Shown: positions 4,678-62,752, counted from the first letter of the stretch. The stretch is 64,000 bases of DNA from Cyanobacteria bacterium J06626_4 (GCA_038523235.1 JBCBJQ010000008.1:53614-117613), one strand, 5' to 3'. Notes: generated from the sequence alone by a model not told the origin. Numbers and translations are program-made.

Positions 4678-4712
4678 TAGGGGCACTCTGCCGATCAGGA
4701 ACACCTGATCAG

Positions 4713-5993: not shown

Positions 5994-6094
5994 AAAGCAT
6001 CATCCCGACCAGACTGGCAGGGAGTACAGTCAGGTCTGACATTGCCCCAGCGGCAGTTTGATGGAGTACTGATAAACGACAAGACGGCGCTAGC

Positions 6095-6964
6095 TTGAAA
6101 ACCGACAGCCTCTTCTACGAGATCTTTCAAACCGATCCGAATATCGTCTTTGACTTGATGGGTAGACCTCCGACAAGAGATGTCACGTATCGCTTTGCCT
6201 CTGAGGAAGTCAAGCAAACCAGCTTCCGGATTGACGGCATCTTGGTACCCCCCACCGACGCCGCTGACTTGCCCATCGTCTTTGTGGAGGTTCAGGGCTA
6301 TCGAGACCAGAAAAATGTTTTGTACTCCAGTTTCTTTGCCCAAATTTTCTTGTATTTGCATGATTATCAACCGCCAAATGATTGGTATGCCGTGCTAATT
6401 TTCACCAGGCGCACGCTCGATCCTGGTTTGCCCAGACACCATCGGGTGTTTGAGGGGAGCCTGCAGTTTCAGCAGATTTATCTGGATGAACTCAACGAAG
6501 CAACTGATCTTTCCCTGGGACTGAAGCTGCTGCGGCTGATTGGTTTAGAACAGAATGCAGCTCCAGCGGAGGGCAGGCAATTGGTTGAACAAACTCGTCG
6601 AGAAGTTGATGATGCTGAAGTCCAACAAAAATTCATAGAATTAATAGAGACGATCTTGGTCTATAAGTTTTCTGAGCTGAGCCGCGAGGAGATTATCGCC
6701 ATGTTGAAATTAGATGACCTCAAACAAACGAGAGTTTATCGAGACGCTCTAGAGGAAGGCCGTCAGGAAGGCCGCCAGGAAGGTCGTCAGGAAGGCCGCG
6801 AGGAAGGCCGCGAGGAAGGCAAACTGGCGGCGGTGCCGTTGCTGCTGAGGGCGGGGATGACGGTGGAGCAGATTGCGGAGCAGTTGCAGGTAGATTTGGC
6901 GGCGGTGCGGCAGGTGGCGGCAGAGGATGCTGGGTCAGGGTTGGGGGAAGGTGAGGGAAGGTGA
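6095..6964 (+). CDS. Rpn-family recombination-promoting nuclease/putative transposase (DUF2887-like)
   Basis: MKTDSLFYEIF, EVKQTSFRIDG, FVEVQ PD-(D/E)XK-type motifs; C-terminal EGRQEG repeats; TTG start. Confidence 0.88.
   Translation: MKTDSLFYEIFQTDPNIVFDLMGRPPTRDVTYRFASEEVKQTSFRIDGILVPPTDAADLPIVFVEVQGYRDQKNVLYSSFFAQIFLYLHDYQPPNDWYAVLIFTRRTLDPGLPRHHRVFEGSLQFQQIYLDELNEATDLSLGLKLLRLIGLEQNAAPAEGRQLVEQTRREVDDAEVQQKFIELIETILVYKFSELSREEIIAMLKLDDLKQTRVYRDALEEGRQEGRQEGRQEGREEGREEGKLAAVPLLLRAGMTVEQIAEQLQVDLAAVRQVAAEDAGSGLGEGEGR
6752..6820 (+). repeat. 12-bp coding tandem repeat (EGRQ/EGRE)
   Basis: (G/C)AGGAAGGYCGY about 6 times. Confidence 0.9.
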
Positions 6965-7078
6965 TTGTCCTCATGTCTGCGGTTGATCGCAGATGAAATA
7001 GCGAGATGTGGCAAGTGCTGGACCAGCCTGATTTGAGCATGCAAGATGGCATGAGAATCTGCTAAAAATGAGTTCGCG

Positions 7079-8197
7079 CTATTGAGCAGCTTGCGATGGT
7101 GTATCGACTAAATACTTAAACAAATCGTCGAGGACCAAATTAGCGGCGGTCGGTCCTATGCTGATCCAGCGACTAGGAACCTCGTAAACTTTGTCTTGCT
7201 GTACCGCGTTAAGTTTTAACCACAAAGGGTCTGCTTTTAGCTCTTCTAAAGTGGTTTGAGACTCCTGAGCCATTTCTTCGTCCGACCCCGCTGTCCAGAC
7301 AAAGATGACATCGCTATCTTCCTTGTGAAGCAGTTCCTTGCTAATCGATACGCTGCCTAATTCTCCAAAAAACTCTTCTGTATGGTGGTCGGGGCGTGAG
7401 AAACCCGCATCCGCCACTACCGCTCCGCAAGGAGTCTCTTCGAGGTAAATCAAAATTCTGCCGCCAAAGACGGACACGATTGAAACTTCTGTCTGCTGAA
7501 GACGATCGCCCATCTGTGCCTGAAATTCTTTAATTCGGGCATCGTAATCCGTCAAGATCTGTTGTGCCTTATCAGTCTTTCCAAGAGTTTCTCCATACAT
7601 GTTCAATAACTTTTTCCAACCCTCTCTAAATTCCCATTCATGCAGTACAGTTGGCGCGATTTTCGACAATTGCTCGTAGTTTTTTCGATCAAGGTAATCA
7701 ACCCCCAATATTAAGTCTGGATTGAGAGCGACAATTGTCTCCAGATCAGGACTACCAGCATCACCGACATCTTCAACGCTTGCTGTTTTATTTTTTAGGT
7801 AAGAATAATCTTTTCGACCGGATTCAGTGCTACCGATAGGTTTAATCCCTAATGATAATAAGGTATCAAAGCCGACACCGAGAACAACAATTCGCTGAGG
7901 ATTGAGTGGAACGCAGACCTCTCCCGAGGAGTGTCGTACCAGGCGACACTCAGATGAGGATATTTGAGCATCAATTGATGACTGGTTTTGGTTGATTGAG
8001 CTACCGGCACAGGCTGAGACGACCGCTACAGTAAGTAAGACCAACAGATACTGGCTGATCCATTTAAGTCTTTTCTTTTGTACTCCGCTTAGCCCCTTTC
8101 TACAATCACTTGGGTTCAATCTTCGGAGTATATCTTTAAGGGAGACGCTGCACGAACGCTTAGATCGCCTTATCCAATTATTGATAAATCTGTTCAT
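7079..8197 (-). CDS. Iron-siderophore ABC substrate-binding lipoprotein (FecB/FhuD-like)
   Basis: Lipobox VSAC, PQRIVVL, PDLETIVALNPDLILG, LSKIAPTV, PLWLKLNAVQ; start moved to MNRFINNW. Confidence 0.9.
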   Translation of the reverse strand: MNRFINNWIRRSKRSCSVSLKDILRRLNPSDCRKGLSGVQKKRLKWISQYLLVLLTVAVVSACAGSSINQNQSSIDAQISSSECRLVRHSSGEVCVPLNPQRIVVLGVGFDTLLSLGIKPIGSTESGRKDYSYLKNKTASVEDVGDAGSPDLETIVALNPDLILGVDYLDRKNYEQLSKIAPTVLHEWEFREGWKKLLNMYGETLGKTDKAQQILTDYDARIKEFQAQMGDRLQQTEVSIVSVFGGRILIYLEETPCGAVVADAGFSRPDHHTEEFFGELGSVSISKELLHKEDSDVIFVWTAGSDEEMAQESQTTLEELKADPLWLKLNAVQQDKVYEVPSRWISIGPTAANLVLDDLFKYLVDTPSQAAQ

Positions 8198-8305
8198 TGG
8201 TAAACGCCATGAGCAAAGAGCATAATAGAGTAAAGGAATGGGCGGAAGCATAAGAGTTAACAAGAAAAGAATAAATCCCTTTCTGCGCTCTGCCTTGTGT
8301 CTTTA

Positions 8306-10996
8306 TTAAAACTCCACTGAAATTGAGCCGAGCACTGTAAAAGGCGCACCAGGAATAACTCCTTGTCTACCTGCCGTACCTTCAATGAATTGGGAATCAA
8401 AGAGATTTTGAAAATTCAGGCCGAACCGATAGTTATCTCGCTCATAGGAAATTGCCGCATCGACACGAGTGTAGCCATCAACAAAGAAAGAATTGTCCAG
8501 GTCTCCCGCCCGTTCGCTGACATAAAATAAGCCTGCGCCAAATCCTAAACCGGCCAAACCACCCTCTTGGATAGTGTATTTTGTCCACAGGTTAAAATTG
8601 TGTTCTGGCACGTTGACCAGGCGATTGCCTTCAGGAATATCATTGTCCTCTGTCACCTCCGCATCGGTGTAGGCGTAACCGGCAAAAATATTCCAGCCCG
8701 GTAAGATTTCCCCTTGTATATCCAATTCAATGCCTCGACTTCTTTGTTCCCCTGTTTGTATATCAAACCCAGGATTATCGGGGTCTGATGTCGTTACATT
8801 CGTGAGGGTCGTGTCATAGAAAGCCAGCGTTGAAAAAAGACGGCCTGGGATGATGTCAGTTTTCACCCCAACTTCAAACCCCGTTCCCCGTTGGGGGTCA
8901 AATGGCTCGTTATCAACATTTCTTCCACCTACAGGAGTAAAAGAGCGGGTATAGCTAGCATAGAGAGAAACGGGCTCGACAGGACGATAGACAATGCCAA
9001 CGCGAGGAGAAAACGCATCTGCATTCGTTTCTGACAATTCTTCGTCAGGATTTCCTGCCTCTTGATTAAAAGTATCAAATCTCCCACCAACAACTAGCTG
9101 AAGATTGTCCAAGATAGCGATTTGGTCTTGTAAATAAATTCCAAACGACTCTCTCCTTAGGTCAAAAGACTCAAGAGGTGAAAATTCTTCTTCAAAAGTA
9201 AATTCTGTTGCAGGATTAAAGATATCAACGGTTGCCCCCCCTCTGTCTCTGAACGTAGCTTCCCGAGATTGATAGGCATATTCCAAGCCAAATAAGAGCG
9301 TGTGCTCGATCGCGCCCGTATTGAACTCAGCAATTAAGTCATTTTGAATAGCAAAAGTTTCAGCAGGCGCACTGAGCACATCTTCATCTACAGGAAAATT
9401 GCGGTCATCTTCCGACGGACCATCAATTTGTATGTTCCTTGGTTCTTCTTCACTGGTGGTTGTATAGCGTAGAAGTGAGCGTAGAGATAGATTGTCGTTA
9501 AAACGATGGTCGAGATAGAGTTCGGTGCGGGTTTCTTCAAACTCAGATGGAGTATCGGGATCGCCTAGAAAGGTATCAAAGGGAATATCGGCAACTTCGT
9601 CGTCGCTTAAAATCACCAGTCCCTGATCTTGTGGTCGAGTGTCATTTAAGTAAGAGAACTCCAAAGTTAACTCTGTGTTGTCACTAATTTCCCAAGACAA
9701 CGTTGGCGCGATAAAAAAACGTTCGGTATCTACGCCATCACGGAAGCTACCGGCATTTTCATAAGCCGCGTTTAAGCGATAGGCTAGGCTGCCGTCTGCC
9801 GTTAACGGTCCAGAGAAATCTAGAGTCGGACGGGTAAAATCAAAGCTCCCCATCGTAAATCCAACTTCGTAAAACGGTTCGCGCAGCGGCTGCTTGGTCA
9901 CAAAGTTGATAATGCCCGATGGTTCGGCACGTCCGAATAGAACAGATGCGGGTCCTTTCAGTACTTCCACGCGCTCGATGTTAGCTAACTCCACTGCGGT
10001 ACGAGACGAGAAGAGAAAATCACCACGAAAGCCATTGCGAAACGCCTCTGCAGTGAAACCTCGAAGAATAAATCGTTCCTGGCGACCTGTAGCTGAGTTT
10101 GCGAAGCTAACACCACTAGCATTTCGTACGATGTCACGTACGTTAGTCGCCCCCTGGTCCCTGATCACCTGCTGCGGTATCACCTGAATCGAAGAAGGCG
10201 TATCGCGAATATCCACACCCGTTCTCAGCGTACTCGGCGCATTAGGCACAAAGTAATCAGAGCCCGCCTCTTCTCCAGTCACCACCACTTGAATCGCGTC
10301 ATCATCAGCATCGGTGGCGGTGGCAACTCCCGGCGTTACGCTTAGCACCAGGGTGCCCGCATCAGCACTAATCTGCGCCTGCGGCACCGCCTCCGTGCCG
10401 GTAATCGAAATCTGCACGCGGTCACCGGGTAAATTCGTCACGCTCACCAGCGCAATCCCCTCCGCTGGGCCAAACTGCTCAAACGCCTCGCCGTCAGGTA
10501 AATCCAGCACCGCATTGGGGATTTCGGCAATCAGTGCCTCCCCTACCGCCTGAGTCGCGGGCGCGGTCAGGTCGCCGCCTGCCGTTTCTAGCACCACTTG
10601 CAGCCCCGCTGCTGTCTCTTCTACCCGCACATTCGTAATCGTGACCCGCGACTGGGCAATTTGCGCCTGCCATTCCTCCACCGTGGTGGCGGGTGGGTTG
10701 GCGGCAGCGGACTCAGTCCGATGAATGTCTTCTACCGAGATCACAGGCGAGTCTATTGCCGCTGACGCCGATTCACTGACTGTCTCTGTTGGGGCGGTGG
10801 GCGAGTCGGCGGCGATCGCCTCGCCGCTGCTGACATCCTCTGCCAGGATGCCGGGGCTCTCTAATACCTCGATTTCCTGCGCCTCAGCCGATAGCGCCAA
10901 AGCCCCCGCCCAGCTACTCGCCAGGGCAACCATCAGTCCCAGGCAGCGGGCCTTAGCAAAGGGGCGCTGTCCTACTCCATTTTGAAGATTCATCAT
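8306..10996 (-). CDS. TonB-dependent siderophore receptor (FhuA/FoxA-like) with AMIN domain
   Basis: SIQVIPQQV, ERVEVLKGPASVLFG, FSPRVGIVY, GEQRSRGIELD, C-terminal ISVEF. Confidence 0.93.
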   Translation of the reverse strand: MMNLQNGVGQRPFAKARCLGLMVALASSWAGALALSAEAQEIEVLESPGILAEDVSSGEAIAADSPTAPTETVSESASAAIDSPVISVEDIHRTESAAANPPATTVEEWQAQIAQSRVTITNVRVEETAAGLQVVLETAGGDLTAPATQAVGEALIAEIPNAVLDLPDGEAFEQFGPAEGIALVSVTNLPGDRVQISITGTEAVPQAQISADAGTLVLSVTPGVATATDADDDAIQVVVTGEEAGSDYFVPNAPSTLRTGVDIRDTPSSIQVIPQQVIRDQGATNVRDIVRNASGVSFANSATGRQERFILRGFTAEAFRNGFRGDFLFSSRTAVELANIERVEVLKGPASVLFGRAEPSGIINFVTKQPLREPFYEVGFTMGSFDFTRPTLDFSGPLTADGSLAYRLNAAYENAGSFRDGVDTERFFIAPTLSWEISDNTELTLEFSYLNDTRPQDQGLVILSDDEVADIPFDTFLGDPDTPSEFEETRTELYLDHRFNDNLSLRSLLRYTTTSEEEPRNIQIDGPSEDDRNFPVDEDVLSAPAETFAIQNDLIAEFNTGAIEHTLLFGLEYAYQSREATFRDRGGATVDIFNPATEFTFEEEFSPLESFDLRRESFGIYLQDQIAILDNLQLVVGGRFDTFNQEAGNPDEELSETNADAFSPRVGIVYRPVEPVSLYASYTRSFTPVGGRNVDNEPFDPQRGTGFEVGVKTDIIPGRLFSTLAFYDTTLTNVTTSDPDNPGFDIQTGEQRSRGIELDIQGEILPGWNIFAGYAYTDAEVTEDNDIPEGNRLVNVPEHNFNLWTKYTIQEGGLAGLGFGAGLFYVSERAGDLDNSFFVDGYTRVDAAISYERDNYRFGLNFQNLFDSQFIEGTAGRQGVIPGAPFTVLGSISVEF

Positions 10997-11115: not shown

Positions 11116-12117
11116 TTAATGCCGTAGCGATCGCGGATTTACCCCAAACCGTTTCCGAAAAGCTGCCGCAAAATGTCCTTGGCTGGTGTAGCCCACTGCG
11201 GAAGCGGCTTGGGTAACCGTCATATCTCCTGTCAACAAAAGTTGTCTGGCCTGTTCTAACCGCTCGGTCTTCACATAGCCAAATACAGTCGTGTCAAGCA
11301 CCTGCCGAAACCCCGCCTTCAGCTTTTTATCATTTAGCCCTACCCGACGGGCCAGCACAATAGTCGAGGGCGGGTCAACCAGCTCCCGCCGCAAAATATT
11401 CACCGCCTCATACACCCGCTCAACATCCGCCGCCTTCAGCGCTTGCGGAGGACACTCCCCCTGCTCTAGCTCCACCCACTGGTCTATCTGGAGTGCCAGC
11501 AATTCCAGCGCCTTACTCTCCAAAAATAGTCGCTTGATGCCGTGACTGTAGGGACAGTGCAATATTTGCTGTAGCACTTTGTGCATGGCTGGGGTCATAT
11601 TGCCCAGAGACTGATGAAAGCGCCGCTGCTCTCCTGTCAGGGTTTGCCGCAGCAGATCTGGCAAAAACCCTAAGTCCATGCCAATCGTCTGGAAAAAGTG
11701 AGGTTCGATATGCAAGCGGAGGAACTGTCTGTGCTGATCCGCTAAGTAAATTTCGGTTTCTTGAATATCTGGCAGCGCAAGAAAGTAGCTTTGGCCAGCC
11801 GCTTCACAATACTCTTCTGGCACCCCTGGAATGCCTGAGCAGCGGACTCCTTGATACCCAGACAGACAAAACTTCGCTATCAACGGCATTTCATCAGGGT
11901 GCTCACCCTTAATACCGACGTCTCTATAGGGTTTGTCATCAGACCATCTTAAAGAAAGCCCTGACTGTAGCCGCAGCACCCATACATTGTCAGTGCTATA
12001 TCGATCCTGGCAGTGGAACATCCAATCAAAGCCGTCGGTGTTGTAGGCGATAGTACCTCTGGCTTCGAGGCAATCTTGCCGTTGCTGATAGTAAGCTTCC
12101 GAGGTGATGATATCCAT
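11116..12117 (-). CDS. AraC/PchR-family regulator
   Basis: QILHCPY...LESKALELL, double HTH. Confidence 0.93.
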   Translation of the reverse strand: MDIITSEAYYQQRQDCLEARGTIAYNTDGFDWMFHCQDRYSTDNVWVLRLQSGLSLRWSDDKPYRDVGIKGEHPDEMPLIAKFCLSGYQGVRCSGIPGVPEEYCEAAGQSYFLALPDIQETEIYLADQHRQFLRLHIEPHFFQTIGMDLGFLPDLLRQTLTGEQRRFHQSLGNMTPAMHKVLQQILHCPYSHGIKRLFLESKALELLALQIDQWVELEQGECPPQALKAADVERVYEAVNILRRELVDPPSTIVLARRVGLNDKKLKAGFRQVLDTTVFGYVKTERLEQARQLLLTGDMTVTQAASAVGYTSQGHFAAAFRKRFGVNPRSLRH

Positions 12118-15811: not shown

Positions 15812-15866
15812 CACTTTCACACCACAAGCAGCAGACAAATAGCAGCCCGCTATATTCCACAACACT

Positions 15867-44569: not shown

Positions 44570-45592
44570 ATGAGCCTTGACCTGACAACCGACGAAATTG
44601 ACGCGATTTGGTCAGAAGCTGAACAGCTCCGGCCACCGGTTATGTCGAGCGATCGCCTCGAAACTGTCTACACCCAACCGTCAACATTGGGACAGGGGCG
44701 CACTCGGGAAATTCAACTCTGTGCCGGGTTAGAACTGTGCATCGTTGATGTGGTATCCCACGATGTGACTGAGCGCGTGCCAGAAAACGAGCATCTGGTG
44801 CAGTTTGCCGCCTATCTCTCAGGCGTGATCGACAGTGGTGACTATTCACAGGGCGATCGCTATTTGCATATAGACGCGAACCAAGGCTACATCGGTGGCA
44901 GCGGCATTCAGCCCAGTCATTTTGGGCTATCCCAAACATCGCACCGTCAAGTCGGGGTCGATATTCATATGACTCCGGCCTTGTTTCGCCAGTTTTTTGC
45001 CAACGGTCAGGGGGAACTGCCGGTCGCGCTGCGGCCCCTCGTGATGGGAAATAACTGGCAGCAGCGCTTTTCACCGCGAACGACAGACGCCATGCGCCTA
45101 GTGATTAAGCAGATCATTCACTGTCCCTTTCAGGGGATGACTAAGCGTGCCTATCTGCAGGCCAAAGTGTTTGAGCTAATGGCGCTACAGCTTGACGGCA
45201 TGATGGTTTCACCACCAAGATCGTCAACCCAATCGCTGAAGGCAGATACCGCCGCCCGCATTCACCACGCGGCAGAAATTTTACGATCACACCTCGAATC
45301 GCCGCCTGGTCAAATCGCCTTAGCGCAACAGGTGGGGGTGAGCGATCGCACCCTACAAAAAGGGTTTAAGGCGGTGTTTGGCATCACGCCATTTGCCTAT
45401 TTGACTCAGCAGCGCATGCAGCAAGCCGAGCAGCTCTTGCGGCAGCCTGGTCAAACTGTGGCGGAGATTGCCAATATTGTCGGCTATGCCAATCCCGCTC
45501 AGTTTGCGATCGCCTTTAAGCGCCAGTTTGGCATTAGCCCCAGTGATTGCCTACAAGGAAAGAAATTGCCCAAAAATTCGGTTTTGGGGTGA
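44570..45592 (+). CDS. AraC/PchR-family regulator
   Basis: QIIHCPFQG..YLQAKVFEL, double HTH. Confidence 0.93.
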   Translation: MSLDLTTDEIDAIWSEAEQLRPPVMSSDRLETVYTQPSTLGQGRTREIQLCAGLELCIVDVVSHDVTERVPENEHLVQFAAYLSGVIDSGDYSQGDRYLHIDANQGYIGGSGIQPSHFGLSQTSHRQVGVDIHMTPALFRQFFANGQGELPVALRPLVMGNNWQQRFSPRTTDAMRLVIKQIIHCPFQGMTKRAYLQAKVFELMALQLDGMMVSPPRSSTQSLKADTAARIHHAAEILRSHLESPPGQIALAQQVGVSDRTLQKGFKAVFGITPFAYLTQQRMQQAEQLLRQPGQTVAEIANIVGYANPAQFAIAFKRQFGISPSDCLQGKKLPKNSVLG

Positions 45593-45668: not shown

Positions 45669-45704
45669 TGAGGGGTTCGCTAATGTGTGGGGATGGTGAC
45701 GGTG

Positions 45705-48428
45705 ATGATGAACGTTTGGATGTCGGTGCGGCTGGCAGTGCTGTTGGCGATCTCGGGTGGGGCGGTTGCTTTAGAAACGACTCCAGCAAAAGCTGACGAA
45801 GACACAGCCGCTCAGAGGTCAGTGTTGCCCCCGCTGACCGAGCAGGCAGCAACTATTTCTGACAGTTCTAGCAACGGAGAAGCCGCACAGTCAGCGTCAA
45901 CGACGATGCCTGATATCACGAGCGCTGACGAGCTGCCATCTGCTGAAGTAGCCCCAACCGTGAGCGCTGCGACGACGAATGAGTCAGCGACAGCAACCGT
46001 TGTCAATGTTGCCGACCTCACCTCGGAAACACCTGCTGCTCCGGCAGCGACGACCGTGGCCGACTGGCTGGCCCAAATCGAAGCCTCGCTGACCCAAATC
46101 ACTGGGGTGCAGATTGAGGAAACTGACGCGGGGTTACAGATTGTGCTCGAAACGGCTGAGGGTGAACTGGCCACGCCGACTACCCAAACAGTGGGCAATG
46201 CCCTGATTGCGGACATTCCCAATGCGGTGTTGGCCCTGCCGGAGGGGGACTCGTTTGAGCAGTTTGAGCCAGCAGCAGGCATTGCGCTGGTGCAGGTGAT
46301 GAATGAACCGGGCGGTGGCGGAGCCTCTCCAGCGGAGAATCGCGTGCGGGTGGCGATTACGGGGACGGATGCCCCGCCGGTGGGGGAAGTGACGGCGACG
46401 GGCTTGGCGGTGACATTGGGTGAGGCGATCGCGGGTGCAGAGGATGACGCGATTCAGGTGGTGGTGACGGGGGAAGGGGATGAAGGGTATAACCCGTCGA
46501 GTGCGAGTACGGCAACGCGGACAGATACACCGCTGCGAGATATTCCTCAGTCGATTCAGGTGGTACCGCAGCAGGTGATTGAGGATCGTAATACTGGAAC
46601 TGTCATTGAATCGGTCGAGACTGTAAGCGGTGTAGTGTACAACGGTGGCTTTGCTGATGCGCCCACTGGCAGTGTAATTATTAGGGGATTTAGTCAAGCA
46701 CAACAGTTTCGAAATGGGTTTCGAGATACAGATCGCACTGGGCTAACTGGGATTGGGACAGTGGAAAGTATCGAAGTTCTCAAAGGTCCTGCATCTGTGT
46801 TGTTCGGCACTTTGGAGCCTGGCGGTATTGTTAACGTGATTACTCGGCAGCCACTGAGCGATCCTCAATACCAGCTTTCATTTGAATTAGGTAACCGCTC
46901 TTCCTACCAACCTCGCATCGATCTAACAGGTCCGTTAACAAACGATGATTTGGCACTATATCGCTTAATTGCAAGCTACGAGAGTGCCGATGGCTTTCAG
47001 GAGTTTACCAATCGAGAGATAACCACCTTTGCTCCCACACTCGCTTTCAACATTGGAGAAAATACAGATTTAAGCTTTTACTACGAGTACATAAATTATT
47101 TTGCCGATCCCCCTGAAGACTATTCATTTCTACTTAGCGACGGAAGCCGTCCACCCCGTGACTTTTACGCCGTGTACCCCGACTTATCTTTTAGAGATTT
47201 TACAACCCAGAAATTCGGCTACAGCTTCAACCACAGTTTTAATGAGGATTGGCAGATTCGTAATAACCTTTCTGCAGCTGTTTCAGATGCTGATGACGGA
47301 GTTTTATTTATAGACTCAATCACAGATGATCGTTTTCTAGAATTCTCTGCAAGTGAGCGGGAATTCACTAGAGATAATTATTACGGTAATGTCGAAGTGT
47401 TGGGTGAATTTGAGACAGGAACAGTCTCACACCAGTTGCTGTTGGGTGTTGATGGGAATTGGGCCGAAGATAGCTTTGCATTTTCTACTGGAAATGTTCC
47501 CACTCTAGACATTCAGAATCCGAACTATAGCGTTGCTACGCCTGTATATACACCGGCCTTTAGAGAGGCTAACTCTGCAGACAGCTATGGTCTTTATTTA
47601 CAAAATCAGATCAGATTTAGCGACAGTGTTCAAATGCTGATAGGTGGGCGCTTTGATTGGATTTCGCAGCGAACCGAAGTAGAAGGTGAAACGCCTCAAG
47701 AGCAAGACGATAGTTCATTCAGCCCGCGCGTGGGGTTAGTTTATCAGCCCAACGATATGGTCTCGTTGTATGCAAGCTACAGTCAGTCTTTTGTGCCAAC
47801 TTTCGGCTCCAACCCCGGAGGAGAAGCATTTGAGCCAACAGAAGGAACTCAATATGAGATAGGCGCTAAAGCGGATTTCCTTGATGGTAGGTTATCCGCA
47901 ACCTTGGCAGGGTATCAAATTACCCGATCAAACATCACGACTACTGATCCTGACGACCCAAACTTTTCAATTCAAGTGGGTGAACAGCGTAGTCGCGGCG
48001 TAGAGTTGGATATTACAGGTGAAATCTTACCTGGATGGAACTTAGTGGCTTCCTATGCCTACACAGATGCGGTTGTCACAGAAGACAACGACACACCAGA
48101 GGGAAACCGATTAACGAATGTTCCTGAACACCAAGTCAGTCTTTGGACAACCTATGAAATTCAGGAGGGTGACTTGGAAGGATTAGGCTTTGGACTAGGA
48201 CTGTTTTATGTCGGTGAGCGTCAAGGAGATTTAGCAAATTCGTTCGTTCTCGATGACTATTTCAGGACGGATGCAGCACTTTTTTATCGAAGAAATCAGT
48301 TTAATGCAGCTATCAATTTTCGAAATTTGTTTGATATAGATTATTTCCGCGCTTCTGACGGTGGAAATTTGTTCTTGTTTCGGGGGGAACCGTTCACCGT
48401 AACTGCTTCCGTTAGCTGGGAATTTTAA
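45705..48428 (+). CDS. TonB-dependent siderophore receptor (FhuA-like), AMIN domain
   Basis: ATRTDTPLRDIPQSIQV, GPASVLFG, C-terminal VSWEF; start uncertain (45687-45720). Confidence 0.93.
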   Translation: MMNVWMSVRLAVLLAISGGAVALETTPAKADEDTAAQRSVLPPLTEQAATISDSSSNGEAAQSASTTMPDITSADELPSAEVAPTVSAATTNESATATVVNVADLTSETPAAPAATTVADWLAQIEASLTQITGVQIEETDAGLQIVLETAEGELATPTTQTVGNALIADIPNAVLALPEGDSFEQFEPAAGIALVQVMNEPGGGGASPAENRVRVAITGTDAPPVGEVTATGLAVTLGEAIAGAEDDAIQVVVTGEGDEGYNPSSASTATRTDTPLRDIPQSIQVVPQQVIEDRNTGTVIESVETVSGVVYNGGFADAPTGSVIIRGFSQAQQFRNGFRDTDRTGLTGIGTVESIEVLKGPASVLFGTLEPGGIVNVITRQPLSDPQYQLSFELGNRSSYQPRIDLTGPLTNDDLALYRLIASYESADGFQEFTNREITTFAPTLAFNIGENTDLSFYYEYINYFADPPEDYSFLLSDGSRPPRDFYAVYPDLSFRDFTTQKFGYSFNHSFNEDWQIRNNLSAAVSDADDGVLFIDSITDDRFLEFSASEREFTRDNYYGNVEVLGEFETGTVSHQLLLGVDGNWAEDSFAFSTGNVPTLDIQNPNYSVATPVYTPAFREANSADSYGLYLQNQIRFSDSVQMLIGGRFDWISQRTEVEGETPQEQDDSSFSPRVGLVYQPNDMVSLYASYSQSFVPTFGSNPGGEAFEPTEGTQYEIGAKADFLDGRLSATLAGYQITRSNITTTDPDDPNFSIQVGEQRSRGVELDITGEILPGWNLVASYAYTDAVVTEDNDTPEGNRLTNVPEHQVSLWTTYEIQEGDLEGLGFGLGLFYVGERQGDLANSFVLDDYFRTDAALFYRRNQFNAAINFRNLFDIDYFRASDGGNLFLFRGEPFTVTASVSWEF

Positions 48429-48455: not shown

Positions 48456-49463
48456 GTGAAGCGTCAACATGGAATCAGGCAATACTCTAAGAAAGCAATC
48501 ATTTCTTTTTTGATATTGCTTACTTCGGTCTTTGCTGCTATTGCTTGCCATAATCAGATATCGCAGCCAGAGCAACTAGCTGCAGGTCAATCATCTTGCC
48601 ATATAGTTGAGCATTCGATGGGGGAGACATGTGTACCCGATAATCCTCAAAATATTGTGGCCCTCTACACACCTCCATTAGCAAGCCTTTTGGCTGTCGG
48701 AGTTGAGCCAATAGGGATAGCACCGGTAACAGGAATACTAGACGAATTTCCTTTGTACCTTTCTGATAAAGTTCAAGACGTAGAGATAGTCGTCAATATT
48801 AATGAAGAGCCAAACCTAGAAAGACTTCTTCAACTCAAACCCGATTTGATTTTAGGATGGAGCTTTCATTCAGAAATATACCCTCTACTATCTAGGATTG
48901 CTCCAACTTTGCTAAATGAACCTGATAATGGCTCGACTATGTGGAGCGACTGGCAAAGCTACTTCAAGTTTATAGCGAAATCGGTGAATAAAGAGGCTGA
49001 GTCCGAGAAGTTTATAGAGGAATATCAACAGAGCATTCTTAAACTCAAAGCAGATCTTGAAGATCGCTATAGTGACAAGACAATATCCGTTGCACAAATT
49101 AGCGATGACTACGGCATCGAAACCTATGTCAAAAACTCTTTTCCTGGCTCCATCCTTTCTAGCCTAGGACTGAAAAGGCCAGAATCGCAAGATAAGAGTA
49201 TTCAGACTAGAGGCACAGTTGAAGCTATATCTAATGAGCAAATTGATTTAATTGATGGTGATATTCTGTTTGTTCTGACCTTCAATGAGAATGACAACAA
49301 AACACTTGAAAATCTTTTAAGTGGCCCTTTGTGGAGGACACTTAAAGCCGTTCAGCAAGAACAAGTATACTTCGTTGATGGGTGGACTTGGGTTGTGCCC
49401 AATCCATTAGCCGCCCAAGCAATCGTCGAAGATTTACGTGATTATCTACTTGATTCCCCTTAG
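48456..49463 (+). CDS. Siderophore-binding lipoprotein
   Basis: Lipobox AIAC, PNLERLLQLKPDLILG, LSRIAPT. Confidence 0.9.
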   Translation: MKRQHGIRQYSKKAIISFLILLTSVFAAIACHNQISQPEQLAAGQSSCHIVEHSMGETCVPDNPQNIVALYTPPLASLLAVGVEPIGIAPVTGILDEFPLYLSDKVQDVEIVVNINEEPNLERLLQLKPDLILGWSFHSEIYPLLSRIAPTLLNEPDNGSTMWSDWQSYFKFIAKSVNKEAESEKFIEEYQQSILKLKADLEDRYSDKTISVAQISDDYGIETYVKNSFPGSILSSLGLKRPESQDKSIQTRGTVEAISNEQIDLIDGDILFVLTFNENDNKTLENLLSGPLWRTLKAVQQEQVYFVDGWTWVVPNPLAAQAIVEDLRDYLLDSP

Positions 49464-56596: not shown

Positions 56597-57283
56597 TCAG
56601 CGCTTGAGGGCCAGGGTGAGTCCATCAGCGATCGCCAACATGCTCAGGTCAATGCGATCATCTTGGTGCAGGGTTTGATTAAGGTCTCGCAGGGCGAGCG
56701 TGTCGGGGTCGTCGGTGATATCGGGATCGGCCACATCCCCACCCCAGAGAACGTTATCAATGGCTATCAGGCCCCCAGGTCGGAGTAACGCCAGGGACTT
56801 CTCGTAGTAGTGGCGGTAGTTGACTTTGTCAGCGTCGATGAAAGCAAAGTCGAAGGTGCCTACTTGTCCGCTGGAAAGCAGAGCGTCAAGGGTGTCGATC
56901 GCGGGGGCGAGGTGCAGGGTGATTTTGTCGGCAACGCCAGCCGCTTGCCAGTAGCGACGGGCTATTTCTGTATACTCCTCACTCACATCGCAAGCAGTGA
57001 TTGCCCCGTCTGGGGGCAATGCCAACGCCATCCAGAGAGTGCTATAGCCAGTAAAGGTGCCAATTTCCAAGACTTTTTTAGCGCCCATCAGCCGCAACAG
57101 TAAGGCCATAAACTGCCCCTGGTCGGGCGCAATCTGCATGCCGCCATGGGGATGTTGAGCCGTCTCTTGACGCAGTTGGGTCAAAATTTCGGGTTCGCGC
57201 AATGAGATAGACAACAGATAGTCGTATAGGTGAGGCTGAAGCTTTCCTAATGCATCGCTGATATTTAAGACTTTTGTAGACAT
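56597..57283 (-). CDS. Cation-dependent SAM O-methyltransferase (caffeoyl-CoA/catechol type)
   Basis: MQIAPDQGQF, VLEIGTFTGYS, FDFAFIDADK, IDNVLWGG. Confidence 0.93.
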   Translation of the reverse strand: MSTKVLNISDALGKLQPHLYDYLLSISLREPEILTQLRQETAQHPHGGMQIAPDQGQFMALLLRLMGAKKVLEIGTFTGYSTLWMALALPPDGAITACDVSEEYTEIARRYWQAAGVADKITLHLAPAIDTLDALLSSGQVGTFDFAFIDADKVNYRHYYEKSLALLRPGGLIAIDNVLWGGDVADPDITDDPDTLALRDLNQTLHQDDRIDLSMLAIADGLTLALKR

Positions 57284-57496
57284 CAAAGACTCTCTGTAAT
57301 CAAAGGTGCTGATTTAATTCAGTATTTTTATCGAATAGGGGATTTTGCTGCACGCTAGAAAGGGACTGTCAAGAAATAATCCAATAATTTGGCATTCCCC
57401 TCCTTTTAAGAGGGGTGGGGAATCCCTTAATTTAAAGGGTGTAGGAGAGTATTTCTGGAAGCTAGTCACAAAGCAGTATATTTCATGAATTGCCAC

Positions 57497-58633
57497 TTAA
57501 GTTTCTTCTTTTATGCTGTCGAGTAGCAAATTTGGTAAAGCTTCTAAAATCAGCTTATCGCTCAAAGGTCCGGTTATTGAACCACTCCAAAGATAAAAAT
57601 CAACAAAGAATACTCGACTTTGCTGAAAAACTGGCAGGGAATTGAGTAGCGGTACTTGTGCCCATTTTTCTAACATTGCATCTTCTGCTCTTATCCCATC
57701 TTCAAAGCGCTTGGAATAGTCATCCCAATAAGATAGGACAATCATTAGATCGGTTTCGACTTCAGACAATATTTCTGCTGAAATTTCAATTTTACCAAGA
57801 TTTCCTTGTACATTCTCTGGTCGAACAATTTCAAAGCCAATTTTTTTCAATAGCCTCACTGTGCTACTTTGAGGACGTAACGCGAACCCAGTTGCCGAGG
57901 CACCAGAACTCACTACAAATACACGAGGATGGGATTGCAATACTGGTTGTAAAGCAACACGAGCCTGAGCGATTTTCTGCTCATGTTCTACTAACAGCTC
58001 TTTTACGCGATCTTCTCGCCCCAAAGCTTTAGCAATTTCTGGGATAGTTGTCTGCCAAAAATCATTGGGATTTTCATACTCATTAAAGAGTAAGGTGGGA
58101 GCAATCTGAGCTAGGGAGGAATATTTATCACTGTTAAGAGAATAGTTTCCTAAAATCAAATCTGGCTTGAGCAAGGTAAGGCGTTCGAGAGAGGGAGCAA
58201 CGCTAGTACCCAAGGAGATCGGTTGGGTTGTTACCCATTGACCGAGATAGGGTATTTGTTTTGTAGGATTATCGTAGGCTTGAATATTTAAATTTACGTC
58301 GTCTTCGGCATAAGCAGCAGGCTGAACTCCCAGTGCCAGTATTCTGTCTAGCATCGGGGAAAAGAGAACAGCAACCTTCTGTGGTTGACCGCAAACCTCT
58401 GTTTCTCCCATCGCATGGCTCACCAGGCGACAATCGGTGGAAGCGGTTTGAGAATTCCTTTGCTGGTTTTGGTTAGTTGTGGAACTGATACAGGCTGAGA
58501 CGATCGCAACAGTGAGCAATAGCAATAGATATCGGTTTATCCGTTTGGCTCTTCTCTTATATTCTTCTCTTAGGAAAGGGAGGCTAGGCAAACGATTCCA
58601 CCATTTCATCCAATTATTAATAAATCTATCCAT
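57497..58633 (-). CDS. Siderophore-binding lipoprotein
   Basis: Lipobox VSAC, HAMGETEVCGQPQKV, PSLERLTLLKPDLILG. Confidence 0.9.
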   Translation of the reverse strand: MDRFINNWMKWWNRLPSLPFLREEYKRRAKRINRYLLLLLTVAIVSACISSTTNQNQQRNSQTASTDCRLVSHAMGETEVCGQPQKVAVLFSPMLDRILALGVQPAAYAEDDVNLNIQAYDNPTKQIPYLGQWVTTQPISLGTSVAPSLERLTLLKPDLILGNYSLNSDKYSSLAQIAPTLLFNEYENPNDFWQTTIPEIAKALGREDRVKELLVEHEQKIAQARVALQPVLQSHPRVFVVSSGASATGFALRPQSSTVRLLKKIGFEIVRPENVQGNLGKIEISAEILSEVETDLMIVLSYWDDYSKRFEDGIRAEDAMLEKWAQVPLLNSLPVFQQSRVFFVDFYLWSGSITGPLSDKLILEALPNLLLDSIKEET

Positions 58634-58698: not shown

Positions 58699-61362
58699 CT
58701 AAAACTCATATTTGAGAGAGCCTATGATTGTGAATGGAGCGCCAGGGTAGACGCCGATTCTACCTAAGGTGGAGTTCTCGTAATATTCAATGTCAAAGAG
58801 ATTTCTAATATTGAGCGCAGCCCGCCATTGATCGCGCTCATAAAAGATGGTGGCATCGGTTCTAAAATAGCTTGGTAACTCAAAGGTATTCAAGTCATCA
58901 CCCGGTCTATTTCCAACAAAAAAGAATCCTAATCCTCCGCCAAACCCTTGTAAGCCTCCGTTTTGGATTTGATAAGTTGTCCACAAACTGGCAATATGTT
59001 GTGCTGAGTTATTCAATCGATTACCAGTGGGAATACGGTTGTCTTCTGTAACACGGGCATCGGTATAAGCATAGGTTGCAATGATGTTCCAACCAGGCAG
59101 GATTTCACCGATGACATCCAACTCAATGCCTTGACTGCGTTGCTCACCGACTTGAATCGAAAATCCAGGATTGTCGAGGTCATCCGTGAGGACATTGCTT
59201 TTTGTAATATCGAATGCTGCTAGATTTGCCGACAGTCTGCCATCCAAAAGCTCACCTCTAACCCCAACTTCAAATTGTCTACCCTCCGTCGGTTCAAAGA
59301 GATCGTTGCTGACAGAACGACCGATCGCAGGAACAAAGGAGGTGCTATAGCTGGCGTAGAGCGAGATGGGGGGAATGGGTTGGTAAACAATTCCCACTCG
59401 TGGACTAAATGCATCACTGAATTGTTCACTGCGCTCAACTAGATTATTTTGAGTAGATAAATCGAACCGTCCTCCAGCCAATAGCTTCAGGTTATCCAAC
59501 AAAGTAATTTGATCTTGTAGATAAATTCCCCATGTATCGATGCGGCTTGAAAAGCTCTCCGGATTCGAAAGATCGGTGGGGCGAGGAACGTCGTTTACCG
59601 GATTGAAAATGTCGTTATTAGGTAATCTGGCAAACCTAAAATTATAGAAATCTGTATTTCGATTGAAATCGAACCCTAGAAGCAGTTGATGTGCGATTGA
59701 GCCAGTGTTGAAGTCTCCAATCAGATCGGTTTGAACAGAATAATTCTGACCAATGTTCTGCTCATCATAAAAACCTCTAGGAATGAATCGATCGTCGATT
59801 AAATCTCCGTCCTCATAAACAGCATCGCCCCTTCTATCAAAGAATGAAACAAAGAAGTTATTTCGGATGCGCCAATTATCGGTAAATCGATGCTCAAATC
59901 TGTAGCCACCTCGATAAAAATCCTGCCTAGAAGTATCCAAAGACGGATAGTTATAATTGGTATTAATCGGAAGGGCCAAAGAATTATCACTCAAGACCGT
60001 AAGTCCCCGATCGACTGGAGAATCGTTGTGTATATACTCAAAATCGAGATCGAGGGTTGTGTTGTCACCAATTTCCCAGGTGAGCGCTGGAGCGATGACA
60101 ATACGTTCTGTATCAACGAAGTCGCGGAAACTTTCAGAGTTTTGGTAGGCAACATTGAGCCGATAGAGAACCGTTCTCTCAGCATTCAGAGGACCAGAAA
60201 TATCGAAACTAGGACGGTAGTAGTTATAGTTACCGACAGCAAAATCCACTGAGTAGTAAGGTTCGCTCAAGGGTTGTTTAGTGACGATATTGACAATACC
60301 GCCCGGTTCAACCTGACCAAACAAGATAGAAGCGGGTCCCTTCAAGACTTCGACTCGCTCAATGTTGGCAAAATCTGGAAAGGAAAAGAAACCGTTATCT
60401 CGCAGTCCGTTTCTAAAGTTCCCTGATTGATTAAAGCCCCGAATTATAAATCCTCCCGCTGGTGTACCGTTGTAGTTTCCTGCTTGGATGACACCGCTGA
60501 CATTTTGTAAGGCATCTCCCAAGCGTTCTATCCTCTGGTCTTCAAGCACCTGTTGCGGAATGACTTGAATTGATTGGGGAATGTCGCGTAGGGGGGTATC
60601 GGTGCGGGTTGCCGTTGTCGCGTTCGACGAGTTGTAGCCTTCATCCTCTTCCCCCGTCACCACCACCTGAATCGCGTCCTCCTCAGCACTGACGATCTCC
60701 TCGCCCAAAGTCACCGCTAGCCCTGTGGCGTTAATCTCAGCAACTGGTGGCGCATCGGTGCCGGTAATGGCGACCCGCACCTGGTCTCCTGGCTCATTGG
60801 TCACACTCACCAGGGCAATGCCTTCAGCTGGTGAAAACTGTTCAAACGAGTCACCCTCCGGCAAAGTCAGCACCGCATTAGGAATGTCAGCAATCAGCGC
60901 ATTGCCCACTGTCTGCGTCGCAGGGGCCGCTAGCTCACCCTCAGCGGTTTCCAACACAACTTGCAAACCCGCTTCAGTCTCCTCCACTCGCACATCGATA
61001 ATCTGCACCAGCAAGGCTTCAATCTGCGCGACCCATTCTTCGACCGTGGTTGTAGCCTGAGAAGTCGAGGGTTGCAGGGTGGGATGGGCAGACACATCGA
61101 TCAGGCGTGCGGCCTCAGCGGCGGGTTCATTCTCCAGTTCTGCAGTGTTTAGCACAGATGCTGGGTCGGTGGGAGGCAGCAAGGGATGGCTAGCGATCGC
61201 CTCATCTACCAGTTCACCCTCAGACTCCGCGATCGTCTCATTCGCCTGCGCCTGCAAGGGCAACCCGACCAGGGCAACGACCACAGCCGCTAGTAGATGG
61301 GGCGATCGTAGCCCCATGATCAAACCTGCCTGACAATTTTTCTGGAACTCTGACCGCCGCAT
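58699..61362 (-). CDS. TonB-dependent siderophore receptor (FhuA-like), AMIN domain
   Basis: ATRTDTPLRDIPQSIQV, GPASILFG, C-terminal LKYEF; start moved to MRRSE. Confidence 0.93.
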   Translation of the reverse strand: MRRSEFQKNCQAGLIMGLRSPHLLAAVVVALVGLPLQAQANETIAESEGELVDEAIASHPLLPPTDPASVLNTAELENEPAAEAARLIDVSAHPTLQPSTSQATTTVEEWVAQIEALLVQIIDVRVEETEAGLQVVLETAEGELAAPATQTVGNALIADIPNAVLTLPEGDSFEQFSPAEGIALVSVTNEPGDQVRVAITGTDAPPVAEINATGLAVTLGEEIVSAEEDAIQVVVTGEEDEGYNSSNATTATRTDTPLRDIPQSIQVIPQQVLEDQRIERLGDALQNVSGVIQAGNYNGTPAGGFIIRGFNQSGNFRNGLRDNGFFSFPDFANIERVEVLKGPASILFGQVEPGGIVNIVTKQPLSEPYYSVDFAVGNYNYYRPSFDISGPLNAERTVLYRLNVAYQNSESFRDFVDTERIVIAPALTWEIGDNTTLDLDFEYIHNDSPVDRGLTVLSDNSLALPINTNYNYPSLDTSRQDFYRGGYRFEHRFTDNWRIRNNFFVSFFDRRGDAVYEDGDLIDDRFIPRGFYDEQNIGQNYSVQTDLIGDFNTGSIAHQLLLGFDFNRNTDFYNFRFARLPNNDIFNPVNDVPRPTDLSNPESFSSRIDTWGIYLQDQITLLDNLKLLAGGRFDLSTQNNLVERSEQFSDAFSPRVGIVYQPIPPISLYASYSTSFVPAIGRSVSNDLFEPTEGRQFEVGVRGELLDGRLSANLAAFDITKSNVLTDDLDNPGFSIQVGEQRSQGIELDVIGEILPGWNIIATYAYTDARVTEDNRIPTGNRLNNSAQHIASLWTTYQIQNGGLQGFGGGLGFFFVGNRPGDDLNTFELPSYFRTDATIFYERDQWRAALNIRNLFDIEYYENSTLGRIGVYPGAPFTIIGSLKYEF

Positions 61363-61381
61363 ATCCACAGACCTCACACTA

Positions 61382-61400
61382 ATCAAGAAAGTTTCTCAAT
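61382..61400. promoter_or_regulatory. Fur-like box
   Basis: ATCAAGAAAGTTTCTCAAT. Confidence 0.65.
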
Positions 61401-61741: not shown

Positions 61742-62752
61742 TCAACGGCCAAACTGACGGCGATACTCACTGGGCGTCAGACCCACACGGCGTTTAAAGG
61801 CGTGGCAAAACTGACTAGGGCTGGCATGGCCCACTCGATCCGCAATGTGGGCAATACTCAACTCACGCTCCTGTAGCAGCCGCTGCGCCTGTTCCATCCG
61901 GCAGGTTTGCACATAGCCAAACACTGTGGTGTCAAAGAGTTGACGAAAGCCCTGCTTGAGCTTGTAGTCATTCAGCCCCACCTGTCTGGCCAGCGCTTGC
62001 AGCGATGGCGGTTGCTCAAACTGGCATCGTAGAATATCTTTCGCCTGGTACAGTCGTTCCCGATCCTCGGGACGCACCCGCTCAGTGCCAGGATGCTCCG
62101 TCAGCTGATGAAACTGAGTTGCCAGCAGCTCCAGCGCCTTAGCTTCTAAATACATGCGCTGAGTTGCCCCAGAGTAGGGACAGTCTAAAATCTGCTGCAG
62201 CGTCGTTGGCATGGCCGCTGTTGAATGAAACGACTGGTGAAATCGGCTGGCCGACTGATCCTTCACCAGAGCGCCCACCAAAGGCGATGGGCTTTCTTCC
62301 GCCAGCCCAAACGAGCGGAGTTGCTCAAAATCGACCTTAACTGAAACGTGCTGAAGTAGCTGTTCAGCGGGGCGATACTCCAGACATCGCGCCCCTGCTA
62401 GATAGCACAGACAGTTTTCCCCAGCCGCTTCTTCGCGATCGGCTTCGCGCTCAATGCCGGGATTGATGATGCGGTGACTACCCGCCAGGTAAAAATTGGA
62501 AAATAGCTGGTCTGTAGAATCGAAGCCGTAGTCGAGATAGAGCGATCGCCAAAACAGGCTCGTCTCAATCACTATCCTGAACCCTGACCGTAGCTCAATC
62601 TTCCGCACCTCGCCTTTACCCAACTGTGACGGAATCGCCCGCCGCGACTCGATGCCATGCTGCTGCCAAAAAATTTCGCCCTGATCCCAGGCGGCATCCC
62701 AGATATCGTCATACTCAGCTTGAACAATGGTTCGGGTGTGATCGAGGGGCAT
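61742..62752 (-). CDS. AraC/PchR-family regulator
   Basis: QILDCPY..YLEAKALELL, GLNDYKLKQGFRQLF, double HTH. Confidence 0.93.
   Translation of the reverse strand: MPLDHTRTIVQAEYDDIWDAAWDQGEIFWQQHGIESRRAIPSQLGKGEVRKIELRSGFRIVIETSLFWRSLYLDYGFDSTDQLFSNFYLAGSHRIINPGIEREADREEAAGENCLCYLAGARCLEYRPAEQLLQHVSVKVDFEQLRSFGLAEESPSPLVGALVKDQSASRFHQSFHSTAAMPTTLQQILDCPYSGATQRMYLEAKALELLATQFHQLTEHPGTERVRPEDRERLYQAKDILRCQFEQPPSLQALARQVGLNDYKLKQGFRQLFDTTVFGYVQTCRMEQAQRLLQERELSIAHIADRVGHASPSQFCHAFKRRVGLTPSEYRRQFGR

Follow-up and report, generated by a model that had tools for sequence, protein, structure and literature searches.

Resident heads and replaced plug-barrel tails in AMIN-type siderophore receptors of a cyanobacterial iron-uptake island

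Siderophore receptors decide who uses whose iron chelators in microbial communities. The AMIN receptors, a class that has only just been described, are purely cyanobacterial (bioRxiv 10.64898/2026.07.30.741596). As far as the accessible text of that preprint goes, the receptor CctA and the binding protein CctB alone suffice to transfer cyanochelin uptake, and a Leptolyngbya AMIN receptor gave functional uptake when expressed in Synechocystis. Exchange of a siderophore receptor gene has also been described for fhuA of Salmonella and Escherichia, whose tree conflicts with both the species tree and the neighbouring transport genes, an observation explained in the available part of that study by frequent exchange between strains (bioRxiv 10.1101/320069). 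Here we analyze a stretch of 64,000 nucleotides from the marine cyanobacterium Cyanobacteria bacterium J06626_4 (GCA_038523235.1, JBCBJQ010000008.1:53614-117613; hereafter the window), which holds eight AMIN receptors designated T1 to T8, and concentrate on the T2, T7 and T8 loci.

Two further systems provide a basis for comparison. In the Pseudomonas pyoverdine locus, highly divergent types of the fpvA receptor gene occur within conserved flanks and are linked to siderophore specificity. In producers, whole fpvA genes vary together with the biosynthetic genes, and we know of no retained N-terminal module with a fixed joint in fpvA. The CdiA-CT/CdiI and Rhs systems have a constant N-terminal part and a short conserved joint motif, followed by a variable C-terminal part that is exchanged with its downstream partner gene.

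The window is an iron-uptake island composed of eight repeated modules, each with an AraC-family regulator, a receptor with AMIN, plug and barrel parts, and a Peripla_BP_2 binding protein, with ABC exporters, MFS transporters and one Suc_Fer-like gene interspersed among them. The receptors lie at 105-2786 (T1), 8306-10996 (T2), 13247-15865 (T3), 21822-24446 (T4), 31522-34230 (T5), 38813-41572 (T6), 45687-48428 (T7) and 58699-61386 (T8), and 28 open reading frames (ORFs) of the whole genome match the receptor profile. The genome has 6.28 Mb, a GC content of 54.2% and 1.3 sites per kb of the HIP1 sequence (GCGATCGC); this HIP1 density and the named close relatives, all of them cyanobacteria, identify the host as cyanobacterial. 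All eight window receptors exceed the cut-off for the N-terminal AMIN domain (PF11741; 25.8-45.6 bits versus 20.5) and match both the plug (PF07715) and the 22-strand barrel (PF00593), with Pfam scores for T2, T7 and T8 of 61.7-84 (plug) and 240-244 (barrel) bits. These three also score 434, 413 and 440 bits, respectively, on the TonB-dependent siderophore receptor profile TIGR01783 (cut-off 223.5 bits), with FhuA- and FoxA-like profiles as the next NCBIfam matches. T1 stays below that cut-off at 178 bits and is best matched as RhtA-like; barrels of the T1 class are only about 20% identical to those of the T2-T8 class. Between AMIN and plug is a conserved D/E-x-I-x-V/L-V-V-T-G stretch, a candidate TonB box at the expected position.

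Resident heads and replaced tails at three loci

At all three loci, resident heads have been kept and tails have been replaced in place within the genus, and the relatives of the tails are found in low-GC orders. The loci are thus probably mosaics in which a native part that is orthologous between congeners, made up of the AraC gene, upstream region and initial 245-297 receptor codons (signal peptide, linker, AMIN domain and TonB box), is joined to a low-GC, HIP1-free plug and barrel of other ancestry, mostly accompanied by the binding protein, that likely recombined in from other cyanobacterial lineages and would change the ferric siderophore that is imported. The strain comparison that a preliminary description of this DNA had proposed as a check bears this out: genomes of the same genus share the AraC gene, upstream region, N-terminus and outer flank with the window, and differ in the block, at each of the three loci. 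The conserved parts show 63-96% nucleotide identity to congeners, and the plug-barrel-binding-protein block between them is unrelated.

The T8 module, encoded on the minus strand, was compared with the congeneric genome G003, a contig of which is syntenic with positions 45574-63005 of the window. The retained flank contains an AraC-family regulator (61742..62752; assigned by Pfam; 81% amino acid identity to G003, synonymous divergence, dS, 0.62). It is followed by the resident N-terminal segment (60631..61386, with AMIN at 60748-60996), which is orthologous to the G003 receptor at the same locus and has a GC content at third codon positions (GC3) of 0.62. The conserved joint motif ATTATRTDTPLRDIPQSIQVIPQQV (60544..60630) contains the crossover, and behind it are a plug and barrel (58699..60543) of probably foreign ancestry, with a GC3 of 0.42 and no HIP1 site, and the low-GC binding protein PBP8 (57497..58633), which was replaced along with the barrel. 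The distal junction of the block is intergenic (57201..57496, without strand) and precedes an O-methyltransferase gene (56597..57286, minus strand; Pfam Methyltransf_3; 86% amino acid identity to G003, dS 0.59) that constitutes the native outer flank. From the AraC gene across the intergenic region and into the N-terminus, as far as about 60619, nucleotide identity to G003 is 70-96%; it falls to 40-60% from there to about 57270, where GC is low in both genomes, and is back at 85-93% from 57170 downward, in the O-methyltransferase gene. At the protein level, T8 and the G003 receptor are 79% identical over residues 1-125 and 85% over residues 126-268, versus 61% in the plug and 50% in the barrel. 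Likewise, four flanking genes have a dS of 0.23-0.62 and the N-terminus shows values of 0.30 and 0.88, compared with 2.77 in the plug and saturation in the barrel and PBP8.

Comparison of T8 with a receptor from G310, a genome of another family (f19), gives the mirror image, with identities of 20% in the leader, 46% in the AMIN segment, and 77% in both plug and barrel. The G310 gene is the best match to the T8 barrel in the sample of 400 phylum genomes against which each barrel query was run, as compared with 46-51% identity to the paralogues of T8 in its own genome and 61% over full length to the best gene of the same genus, which is the G003 gene at the same locus. In a large protein collection, the named relatives at 75-76% belong to Nostocales (Iningainema tapete and Tolypothrix sp.). 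One protein of that collection is 88-91% identical to T8 in the barrel and 68% in the AMIN segment. In another protein, P0004, the barrel is 98-99% identical and the N-terminus 81% (residues 1-125) and 93% (residues 126-245) identical, a pattern that would be expected of a recent block transfer between close strains.

The T7 module is on the plus strand. Its retained flank holds an AraC-family regulator (44570..45592; Pfam) with 84% nucleotide identity to locus L013 of the congener G012. The resident N-terminal segment (45687..46508, AMIN at 46107-46367; GC3 0.63) begins 18 nucleotides earlier than in the preliminary description, which had placed the receptor start at 45705; the longest ORF starts with GTG at 45687. 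The conserved joint motif TATRTDTPLRDIPQSIQVVPQQV (46509..46577) is followed by a plug and barrel (46578..48428) with a GC3 of 0.39 and no HIP1 site, and by the low-GC binding protein PBP7 (48456..49463; Pfam), which is 75% identical to its G003 orthologue. Nucleotide identity to G012 is 82-84% across the AraC gene and N-terminus and ends at 46589; beyond the equivalent of this position GC in G012 changes from 0.60 to 0.45 and a different low-GC barrel follows. As a result, the T7 and G012 receptors are 92% identical in the N-terminus and 44% in the barrel. The barrel of T7 is shared with G003 (88-91% amino acid identity) and not with G012. Since the G003 orthologue is uniform over its length (85, 91, 91 and 88% identity; dS 0.18-0.66) and shows the same compositional step, the T7 mosaic is older than the split between the host and G003. 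Outside the family, the best match to the T7 barrel reaches 59%, in f19 genomes.

The T2 module, on the minus strand, contains an AraC-family regulator of native composition (11116..12117; Pfam HTH_18/HTH_AraC) that belongs to the retained flank and has 63-79% nucleotide identity to the same-locus stretch of G012. The resident N-terminal segment (10262..10996; GC3 0.65) comprises signal, linker, AMIN domain (10361-10633; residues 122-212 by Pfam) and TonB-box region, and the conserved joint motif STLRTGVDIRDTPSSIQVIPQQV (10166..10234), placed by alignment, marks the junction between TonB box and plug. Behind it are a plug and barrel (8306..10165; Pfam Plug and TonB_dep_Rec_b-barrel; GC3 0.40, no HIP1) of probably foreign ancestry and PBP2, a low-GC, HIP1-free binding protein of the Peripla_BP_2, FhuD/FecB-like type (7079..8263; Pfam and NCBIfam). 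Nucleotide identity to G012 is 78-94% in the MFS flank and 63-79% over AraC gene and N-terminus (from about 10362 upward), versus 37-67% between these flanks (about 6000-10300), where the G012 sequence is native in GC and includes three HIP1 sites. Receptors of Pleurocapsales cyanobacterium LEGE 10410 and Hyella patelloides LEGE 07179 match the T2 barrel at 71-73% identity, with AMIN segments that are only 36-37% identical to that of T2 and loci of uniform GC (0.41). Vasconcelosia minhoensis and two metagenome genomes have relatives alike in both parts (AMIN 66-91%, barrel 76-78%), all with the step present; genome G017 may coincide with one of these relatives and was counted once. There does not appear to be a T2 orthologue in five same-genus genomes searched with T2 as query (best match 51%), and the G012 locus was found through its flanks.

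Several additional observations concern sequences around these blocks. An Rpn-family gene for a recombination-promoting nuclease or putative transposase (6095..6964, plus strand; DUF2887, PF11103; TIGR01784 85 bits versus a cut-off of 52.1) adjoins the distal end of the T2 block inside the stretch without homology in G012; it is single copy in the genome by phmmer, has near-native GC and lacks HIP1. At the T8 locus, about 240 bp of the spacer between receptor and AraC gene (about 61520-61760) have no counterpart in G003. Just past the outer flank of T8, in a stretch without nucleotide match in G003, is an ORF of 235 amino acids (55751-56458, plus strand) whose match to Peripla_BP_2 is limited to the C-terminal half of the profile (positions 97-234) and which may be a relic of an earlier block.

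Base composition, breakpoints and trees

Breakpoints were located by likelihood change-points in GC and GC3, by maximum chi-square on parent-informative sites and by approximately unbiased (AU) tests, in place of the recombination programs named in the preliminary description. That description had reported GC dropping near the plug start at about 10170, 46580 and 60550 and staying low through the binding protein, and the change-points agree. For GC they fall at 10148 in T2 (support 9874-10312; 0.46 below and 0.60 above), at 46576 in T7 (46513-46679; 0.60, then 0.45) and at 60576 in T8 (60434-60604; 0.44, then 0.57). For GC3 they fall at codon 283 in T2 (0.65 to 0.40), codon 297 in T7 (0.63 to 0.39) and codon 268 in T8 (0.62 to 0.42), with none of 300 permutations as large in any of the three. 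All three GC3 steps are within or beside the SIQV(I/V)PQQV motif at the start of the plug. Low GC extends across the binding-protein genes of these modules to distal change-points at about 7523 (weak; 6958-7605), about 50337 (49732-50440) and 57201 (57146-57262). As the step is in third codon positions, amino acid composition does not explain it.

The step is confined to some of the receptors. The controls T4, T5 and T6 have no GC3 step (164, 231 and 247 of 300 permutations reach the observed value), and those of T1 (0.64 to 0.54; 27/300) and T3 (0.61 to 0.50; 24/300) are marginal. Genome-wide, 5 of 26 receptor ORFs show a significant downward step (0/100 permutations), namely T2, T7, T8 and two others, and several further receptors have drops of 0.10-0.18. 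Among the 1386 ORFs of at least 400 amino acids, GC3 averages 0.626 (sd 0.059) and 1.4% lie below 0.45; the T2, T7 and T8 barrels, at 0.39-0.42, are in this lowest 1.4%. The comparison was extended to 41 receptors drawn from this genome, from related genomes and from other families. A GC3 drop of at least 0.19 was present in 8 of 23 receptors of family f1 and in none of 18 from families f10, f17, f19, f20 and f28 (range -0.07 to +0.12). All 23 f1 receptors have AMIN segments with a GC3 of 0.56-0.70 and barrels ranging from 0.33 to 0.68, and in the 16 receptors of f17, f19 and f28 GC3 is low throughout, in AMIN segment and barrel alike (0.27-0.47). The low-GC lineages with the closest barrel relatives lack the step.

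HIP1 sites show a corresponding pattern. The window has 72, versus 1.5 expected by chance, with gaps from 5352 to 10812, 46432 to 49654 and 56635 to 61193; the HIP1-free intervals noted by eye in the preliminary description (7079-10800, 46433-49653 and 56636-61192) are exact. At the density seen outside them (1.32 per kb), the three blocks (9524 bp) would be expected to contain 12.6 sites, and they contain none (Poisson 3.4e-6). The barrel and binding-protein stretches of T4, T5 and T6 contain 3, 3 and 4 sites.

Heads and barrels also have different histories. The AMIN-to-TonB-box segments of T7 and T8 had been described as more alike than their barrels, and we find 81% identity in these segments versus 52% in the plug and 46% in the barrel. 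The N-terminus, described as constant, is so per locus and lineage and is not one sequence: N-termini of paralogues within the genome share 27-81% identity, and AMIN-segment dS among T2, T7 and T8 is 1.21-1.59 (1.24 for T7 versus T8). Separate trees were built from 41 of 53 collected sequences, the remaining 12 being two non-receptor ORFs, three poor matches and seven T1-class or divergent receptors, and they are strongly incongruent (AU p 4e-41 to 4e-86). In the AMIN-to-TonB-box tree, all 13 f19 sequences form one clade (support 98), with all f1 sequences on the opposite side. In the tree of plug and barrel, T8 pairs with G310 (100) inside a clade of 20 that contains all 13 f19 sequences, and T7, its G003 orthologue and the G003 block at the T8 locus fall in a clade of 10 with six f19 sequences and one f17 sequence (100). 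With barrel data, AU tests reject f19 as a single clade (p 4e-83) and a grouping of T8 with the G003 receptor of the same locus (p 3e-81); with N-terminal data they reject T8 with G310 (p 4e-41) and the 10-member barrel clade (p 4e-86).

The same division extends to T1-class receptors, whose barrels in f19 and f17 genomes are 42-44% identical. When these were added to the N-terminal analysis (53 rows; five T1-class sequences restored, G000_C2_124303 and G000_C106_7130 still excluded), N-termini were split by organism family (100) across barrel classes, and a single clade of T1-class N-termini was rejected (AU p 0.0016). Base composition alone does not explain this split, because the low-GC f17 sequences mostly group on the GC-rich f1 side. 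Thus, re-assortment of heads and barrels has gone on over long times in several lineages.

Breakpoint tests place the change at the joint. For T8, with the same-locus G003 gene as stand-in for the resident parent and the G310 gene for the donor, 274 informative sites side with G003 and 30 with G310 ahead of residues 271/272, and beyond them 525 side with G310 and 102 with G003 (0/500 permutations). Maximum chi-square breaks fall at residues 244/246 in T2 and 298/299 in T7 (0/500 permutations); loci L045 and L048, whose ORFs were missed by the motif filter, were left out of this three-way test. The T8 joint is also the top of 109 windows of 60 nt for f1-f19 nucleotide identity (0.71 versus a median of 0.54).

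Linkage of the binding protein to the barrel varies. By PF01497 (cut-off 27.5 bits), PBP2 (99.2), PBP7 (94.7) and PBP8 (74.6) are class III periplasmic binding proteins, FhuD/FecB-like. PBP8 is 32% identical to the G003 binding protein of the same locus, and of its seven best matches in other genomes, four sit immediately behind the best T8-like barrels, two are non-adjacent and for one the contig ends. The comparison was made without G310, since its contig stops within the barrel. For T7, the binding protein was inherited along with the barrel in G003. For T2, the binding protein next to the barrel is 57% identical to PBP2 in Vasconcelosia and 27-28% in Hyella, in the Pleurocapsales strain and at L045, a locus of a metagenome genome with a 78% identical barrel. 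Hence the binding protein is usually, though not always, part of the exchanged block. This qualifies the proposal of the preliminary description that foreign barrel and binding-protein blocks recombine in behind a resident promoter and AMIN segment, which otherwise agrees with the replaced blocks at all three loci and the incongruent trees.

A few observations on the rest of the island can be added. The Suc_Fer-like (thioredoxin/ferredoxin-like) gene lies at 43090-44187 on the minus strand; a gene of this type, CctD, is recurrent in cyanobacterial siderophore transport loci according to the available text of a recent preprint (bioRxiv 10.64898/2026.07.30.741596). Between the AraC gene of T1 and an MFS gene, an element of about 80 nt (4600-4683) is a small dispersed repeat, with dozens of copies at 80-100% identity in each of five same-genus genomes. 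A T7 query found only one or two weak matches in 5 of 13 same-genus genomes (G001, G004, G006, G008 and G010; best E 1e-8 to 1e-12) and 14-31 in others. On this one query, the receptor set as a whole appears to be accessory in the genus.

Alternative readings and a possible course of exchange

It is conceivable, though we regard it as unlikely, that the N-terminus is the moving piece, with whole foreign receptor genes imported and their 5' parts later overwritten by gene conversion from resident paralogues. Some homogenisation or re-assortment within lineages is indeed needed, since N-termini group by organism family across both deep barrel classes, and between T7 and its G003 orthologue dS is lower in the N-terminus (0.18-0.40) than in the barrel (0.66). 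However, at all three loci the N-terminus is continuous with the orthologous AraC gene and upstream region at flank-level divergence, and only the block behind it differs, therefore the N-terminus stayed in place. The paralogous N-termini are also old by the dS values given above, so no recent conversion has occurred; recent gene conversion among the window paralogues was rejected on these values. That the barrels instead diverged in place without transfer, under strong diversifying selection by agents such as phages or bacteriocins, has very little probability. TonB-dependent receptors are known phage and toxin receptors, as stated in the accessible part of the fhuA study (bioRxiv 10.1101/320069). 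Against divergence in place, synonymous sites are saturated in the block versus 0.2-0.9 in the flanks, composition shifts, and the nearest relatives of the blocks are in other families (71-77%) versus 44-61% for congener blocks at the same locus (the G003 plug and barrel for T8, the G012 barrel for T7) and only 51% for the best same-genus match to T2. The trees likewise contradict divergence in place.

Hardly more credible is a step intrinsic to the gene, arising from amino acid composition, codon selection or a mutation bias that differs between AMIN and barrel parts. The mild drops in T1 and T3 and those of 0.10-0.18 elsewhere in the genome would fit it; yet the step lies in third positions and continues across a separate binding-protein gene and spacers, HIP1 is missing from the blocks only, and because the step is absent in T4-T6 and in 18 of 18 receptors of other families, it is not intrinsic to the gene family. 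We give similarly scant credence to an assembly chimera, even though the genome is metagenome-derived and the joint coincides with the best-conserved part of a family with multiple copies. The window sequence is present in public runs labelled marine metagenome, with no RNA run listed and parts of the stretch without contig cover in some runs; at 60596-60749 depth rises three- to eight-fold, and contigs of one run break there. Nevertheless, native sequence resumes at a non-repeated distal junction, and contigs bridge both T8 joints: the proximal one in two runs of another study (X6, 60449-60896; X3, 58975-60676) and the distal one in a second sample (X2, 56900-57412). Moreover, the step recurs at the same position in independent, diverged assemblies, among them G003 (dS 0.4-0.66) and the cultured strain Vasconcelosia minhoensis LEGE 07310. 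Loose contig ends at 60624/60641 and 57139, seen in several runs and continuing into unlike sequence, may represent paralogues, or natural joins of different heads or blocks at these points.

Replacement of the tails behind resident heads would involve entry of DNA from other cyanobacteria, which replaced the plug and barrel, mostly with the binding-protein gene. Transfer would have run from low-GC lineages to this family, with Nostocales-like sources for T7 and T8 and a Pleurocapsales-like source for T2. The first entry from distant donors may have proceeded by short-homology or illegitimate joining, and blocks could then be traded within the genus by homologous recombination in the conserved flanks (75-95% identical). 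Selection would subsequently retain only joints in frame at the domain boundary, and the clustering of joints there may reflect selection for working proteins as much as sequence identity. The head would be retained because TonB box and AMIN domain must fit the TonB and cell wall of the host. The AraC regulator was not exchanged along with the block. The swaps could also have changed ligand specificity or, as the preliminary description suggested, phage-receptor specificity.

A number of points weigh against this replacement of tails or limit it. No donor outside the lineage is more than 71-77% identical, and therefore the transfers are old or the donors unsampled, and direction rests on composition and on nesting in the trees. 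As the paralogous N-termini are old (dS at least 1.2), "resident" applies per locus and to no single shared sequence. Identity at the f1-f19 joint averages only 0.71, and the longest exact run between the parent stand-ins is 11 nt, which is short for classical homologous recombination with distant DNA; the distal flank has no match in distant donors. At the three distal junctions there were no integrase or insertion-sequence marks, and repeats, inverted repeats and terminator or promoter excess were not beyond chance. The only mobile-type candidate is the Rpn-family gene beside the T2 block, with none at T7 or T8. Binding protein and barrel do not co-vary in the T2 type. The share of f19 in the barrel clades is partly built in, as loci of other families were picked as best barrel matches, and some AU groups were defined after identities were known. 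Finally, if the Leptolyngbya construct expressed in Synechocystis kept its own N-terminus, as the available text implies without stating it, a foreign N-terminus would not always be incompatible.

Comparison with known systems

A broader proposal can be put forward only tentatively, as we find it possible and somewhat short of an even chance. The conserved motif T-x-TRTDTPLRDIPQSIQVIP might be the built-in joint of a polymorphic receptor system, in which any foreign plug and barrel, usually with its binding protein, can be placed behind a lineage-adapted head, so frequently that N-termini track the organism and barrels track the ligand even across classes that are 20% identical. The head would then be a host-compatibility module for TonB and cell wall, and the tail a freely traded specificity module. 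The rule that emerges is that the host head is kept while plug and barrel, and often the binding protein, are exchanged. It suggests that the head is specific to the host and fits its TonB and cell wall, and would explain how these genomes assemble large, varied receptor islands. It would also mean that receptor trees made with and without the N-terminus tell different histories. Additionally, it could serve as a design guide for chimeric receptors in the Synechocystis expression platform, and it makes the function of the AMIN domain and TonB box directly testable.

In the literature searched we found no report of mosaicism between N-terminus and barrel in cyanobacterial (AMIN) receptors; the trees in Figure S2 of the CctA/CctB preprint, which are outside this search, might bear on the barrel clades. 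Receptor mosaicism is already known, and the form found here for the AMIN class, with the head kept and the tail swapped, is well supported as an evolutionary pattern and was not found reported. In layout, the loci are like those of the polymorphic toxins. They differ in that they encode uptake receptors, that the partner is a binding protein rather than an immunity protein, and that no orphan cassette arrays were seen. With the fpvA types they share alternative, divergent receptor alleles at one locus between conserved flanks.

The likeness to fhuA, as far as the accessible part of that study describes it (bioRxiv 10.1101/320069), is a siderophore receptor gene with a history that conflicts with species and neighbours. 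There, however, fhuA is exchanged as a whole, and fhuCDB with its binding-protein gene keeps to the species tree. In the cyanobacterial loci the joint falls within the gene, the N-terminal module is retained, the binding-protein gene mostly moves with the barrel, and the donors are from other orders and left a compositional signature. A further likeness is to CctA/CctB (bioRxiv 10.64898/2026.07.30.741596). In the available text of that preprint, AMIN was left out of the phylogeny and the terms recombination, mosaic, chimer, modular and GC content are absent, therefore the mosaic structure, the fixed joint and lineage-specific N-termini are not described there. Both systems have the order AMIN, plug and barrel, a receptor followed by a binding protein, and an island with AraC-type regulators and a thioredoxin/ferredoxin-like gene, and the pair of receptor and binding protein is the unit exchanged at the T2, T7 and T8 loci.

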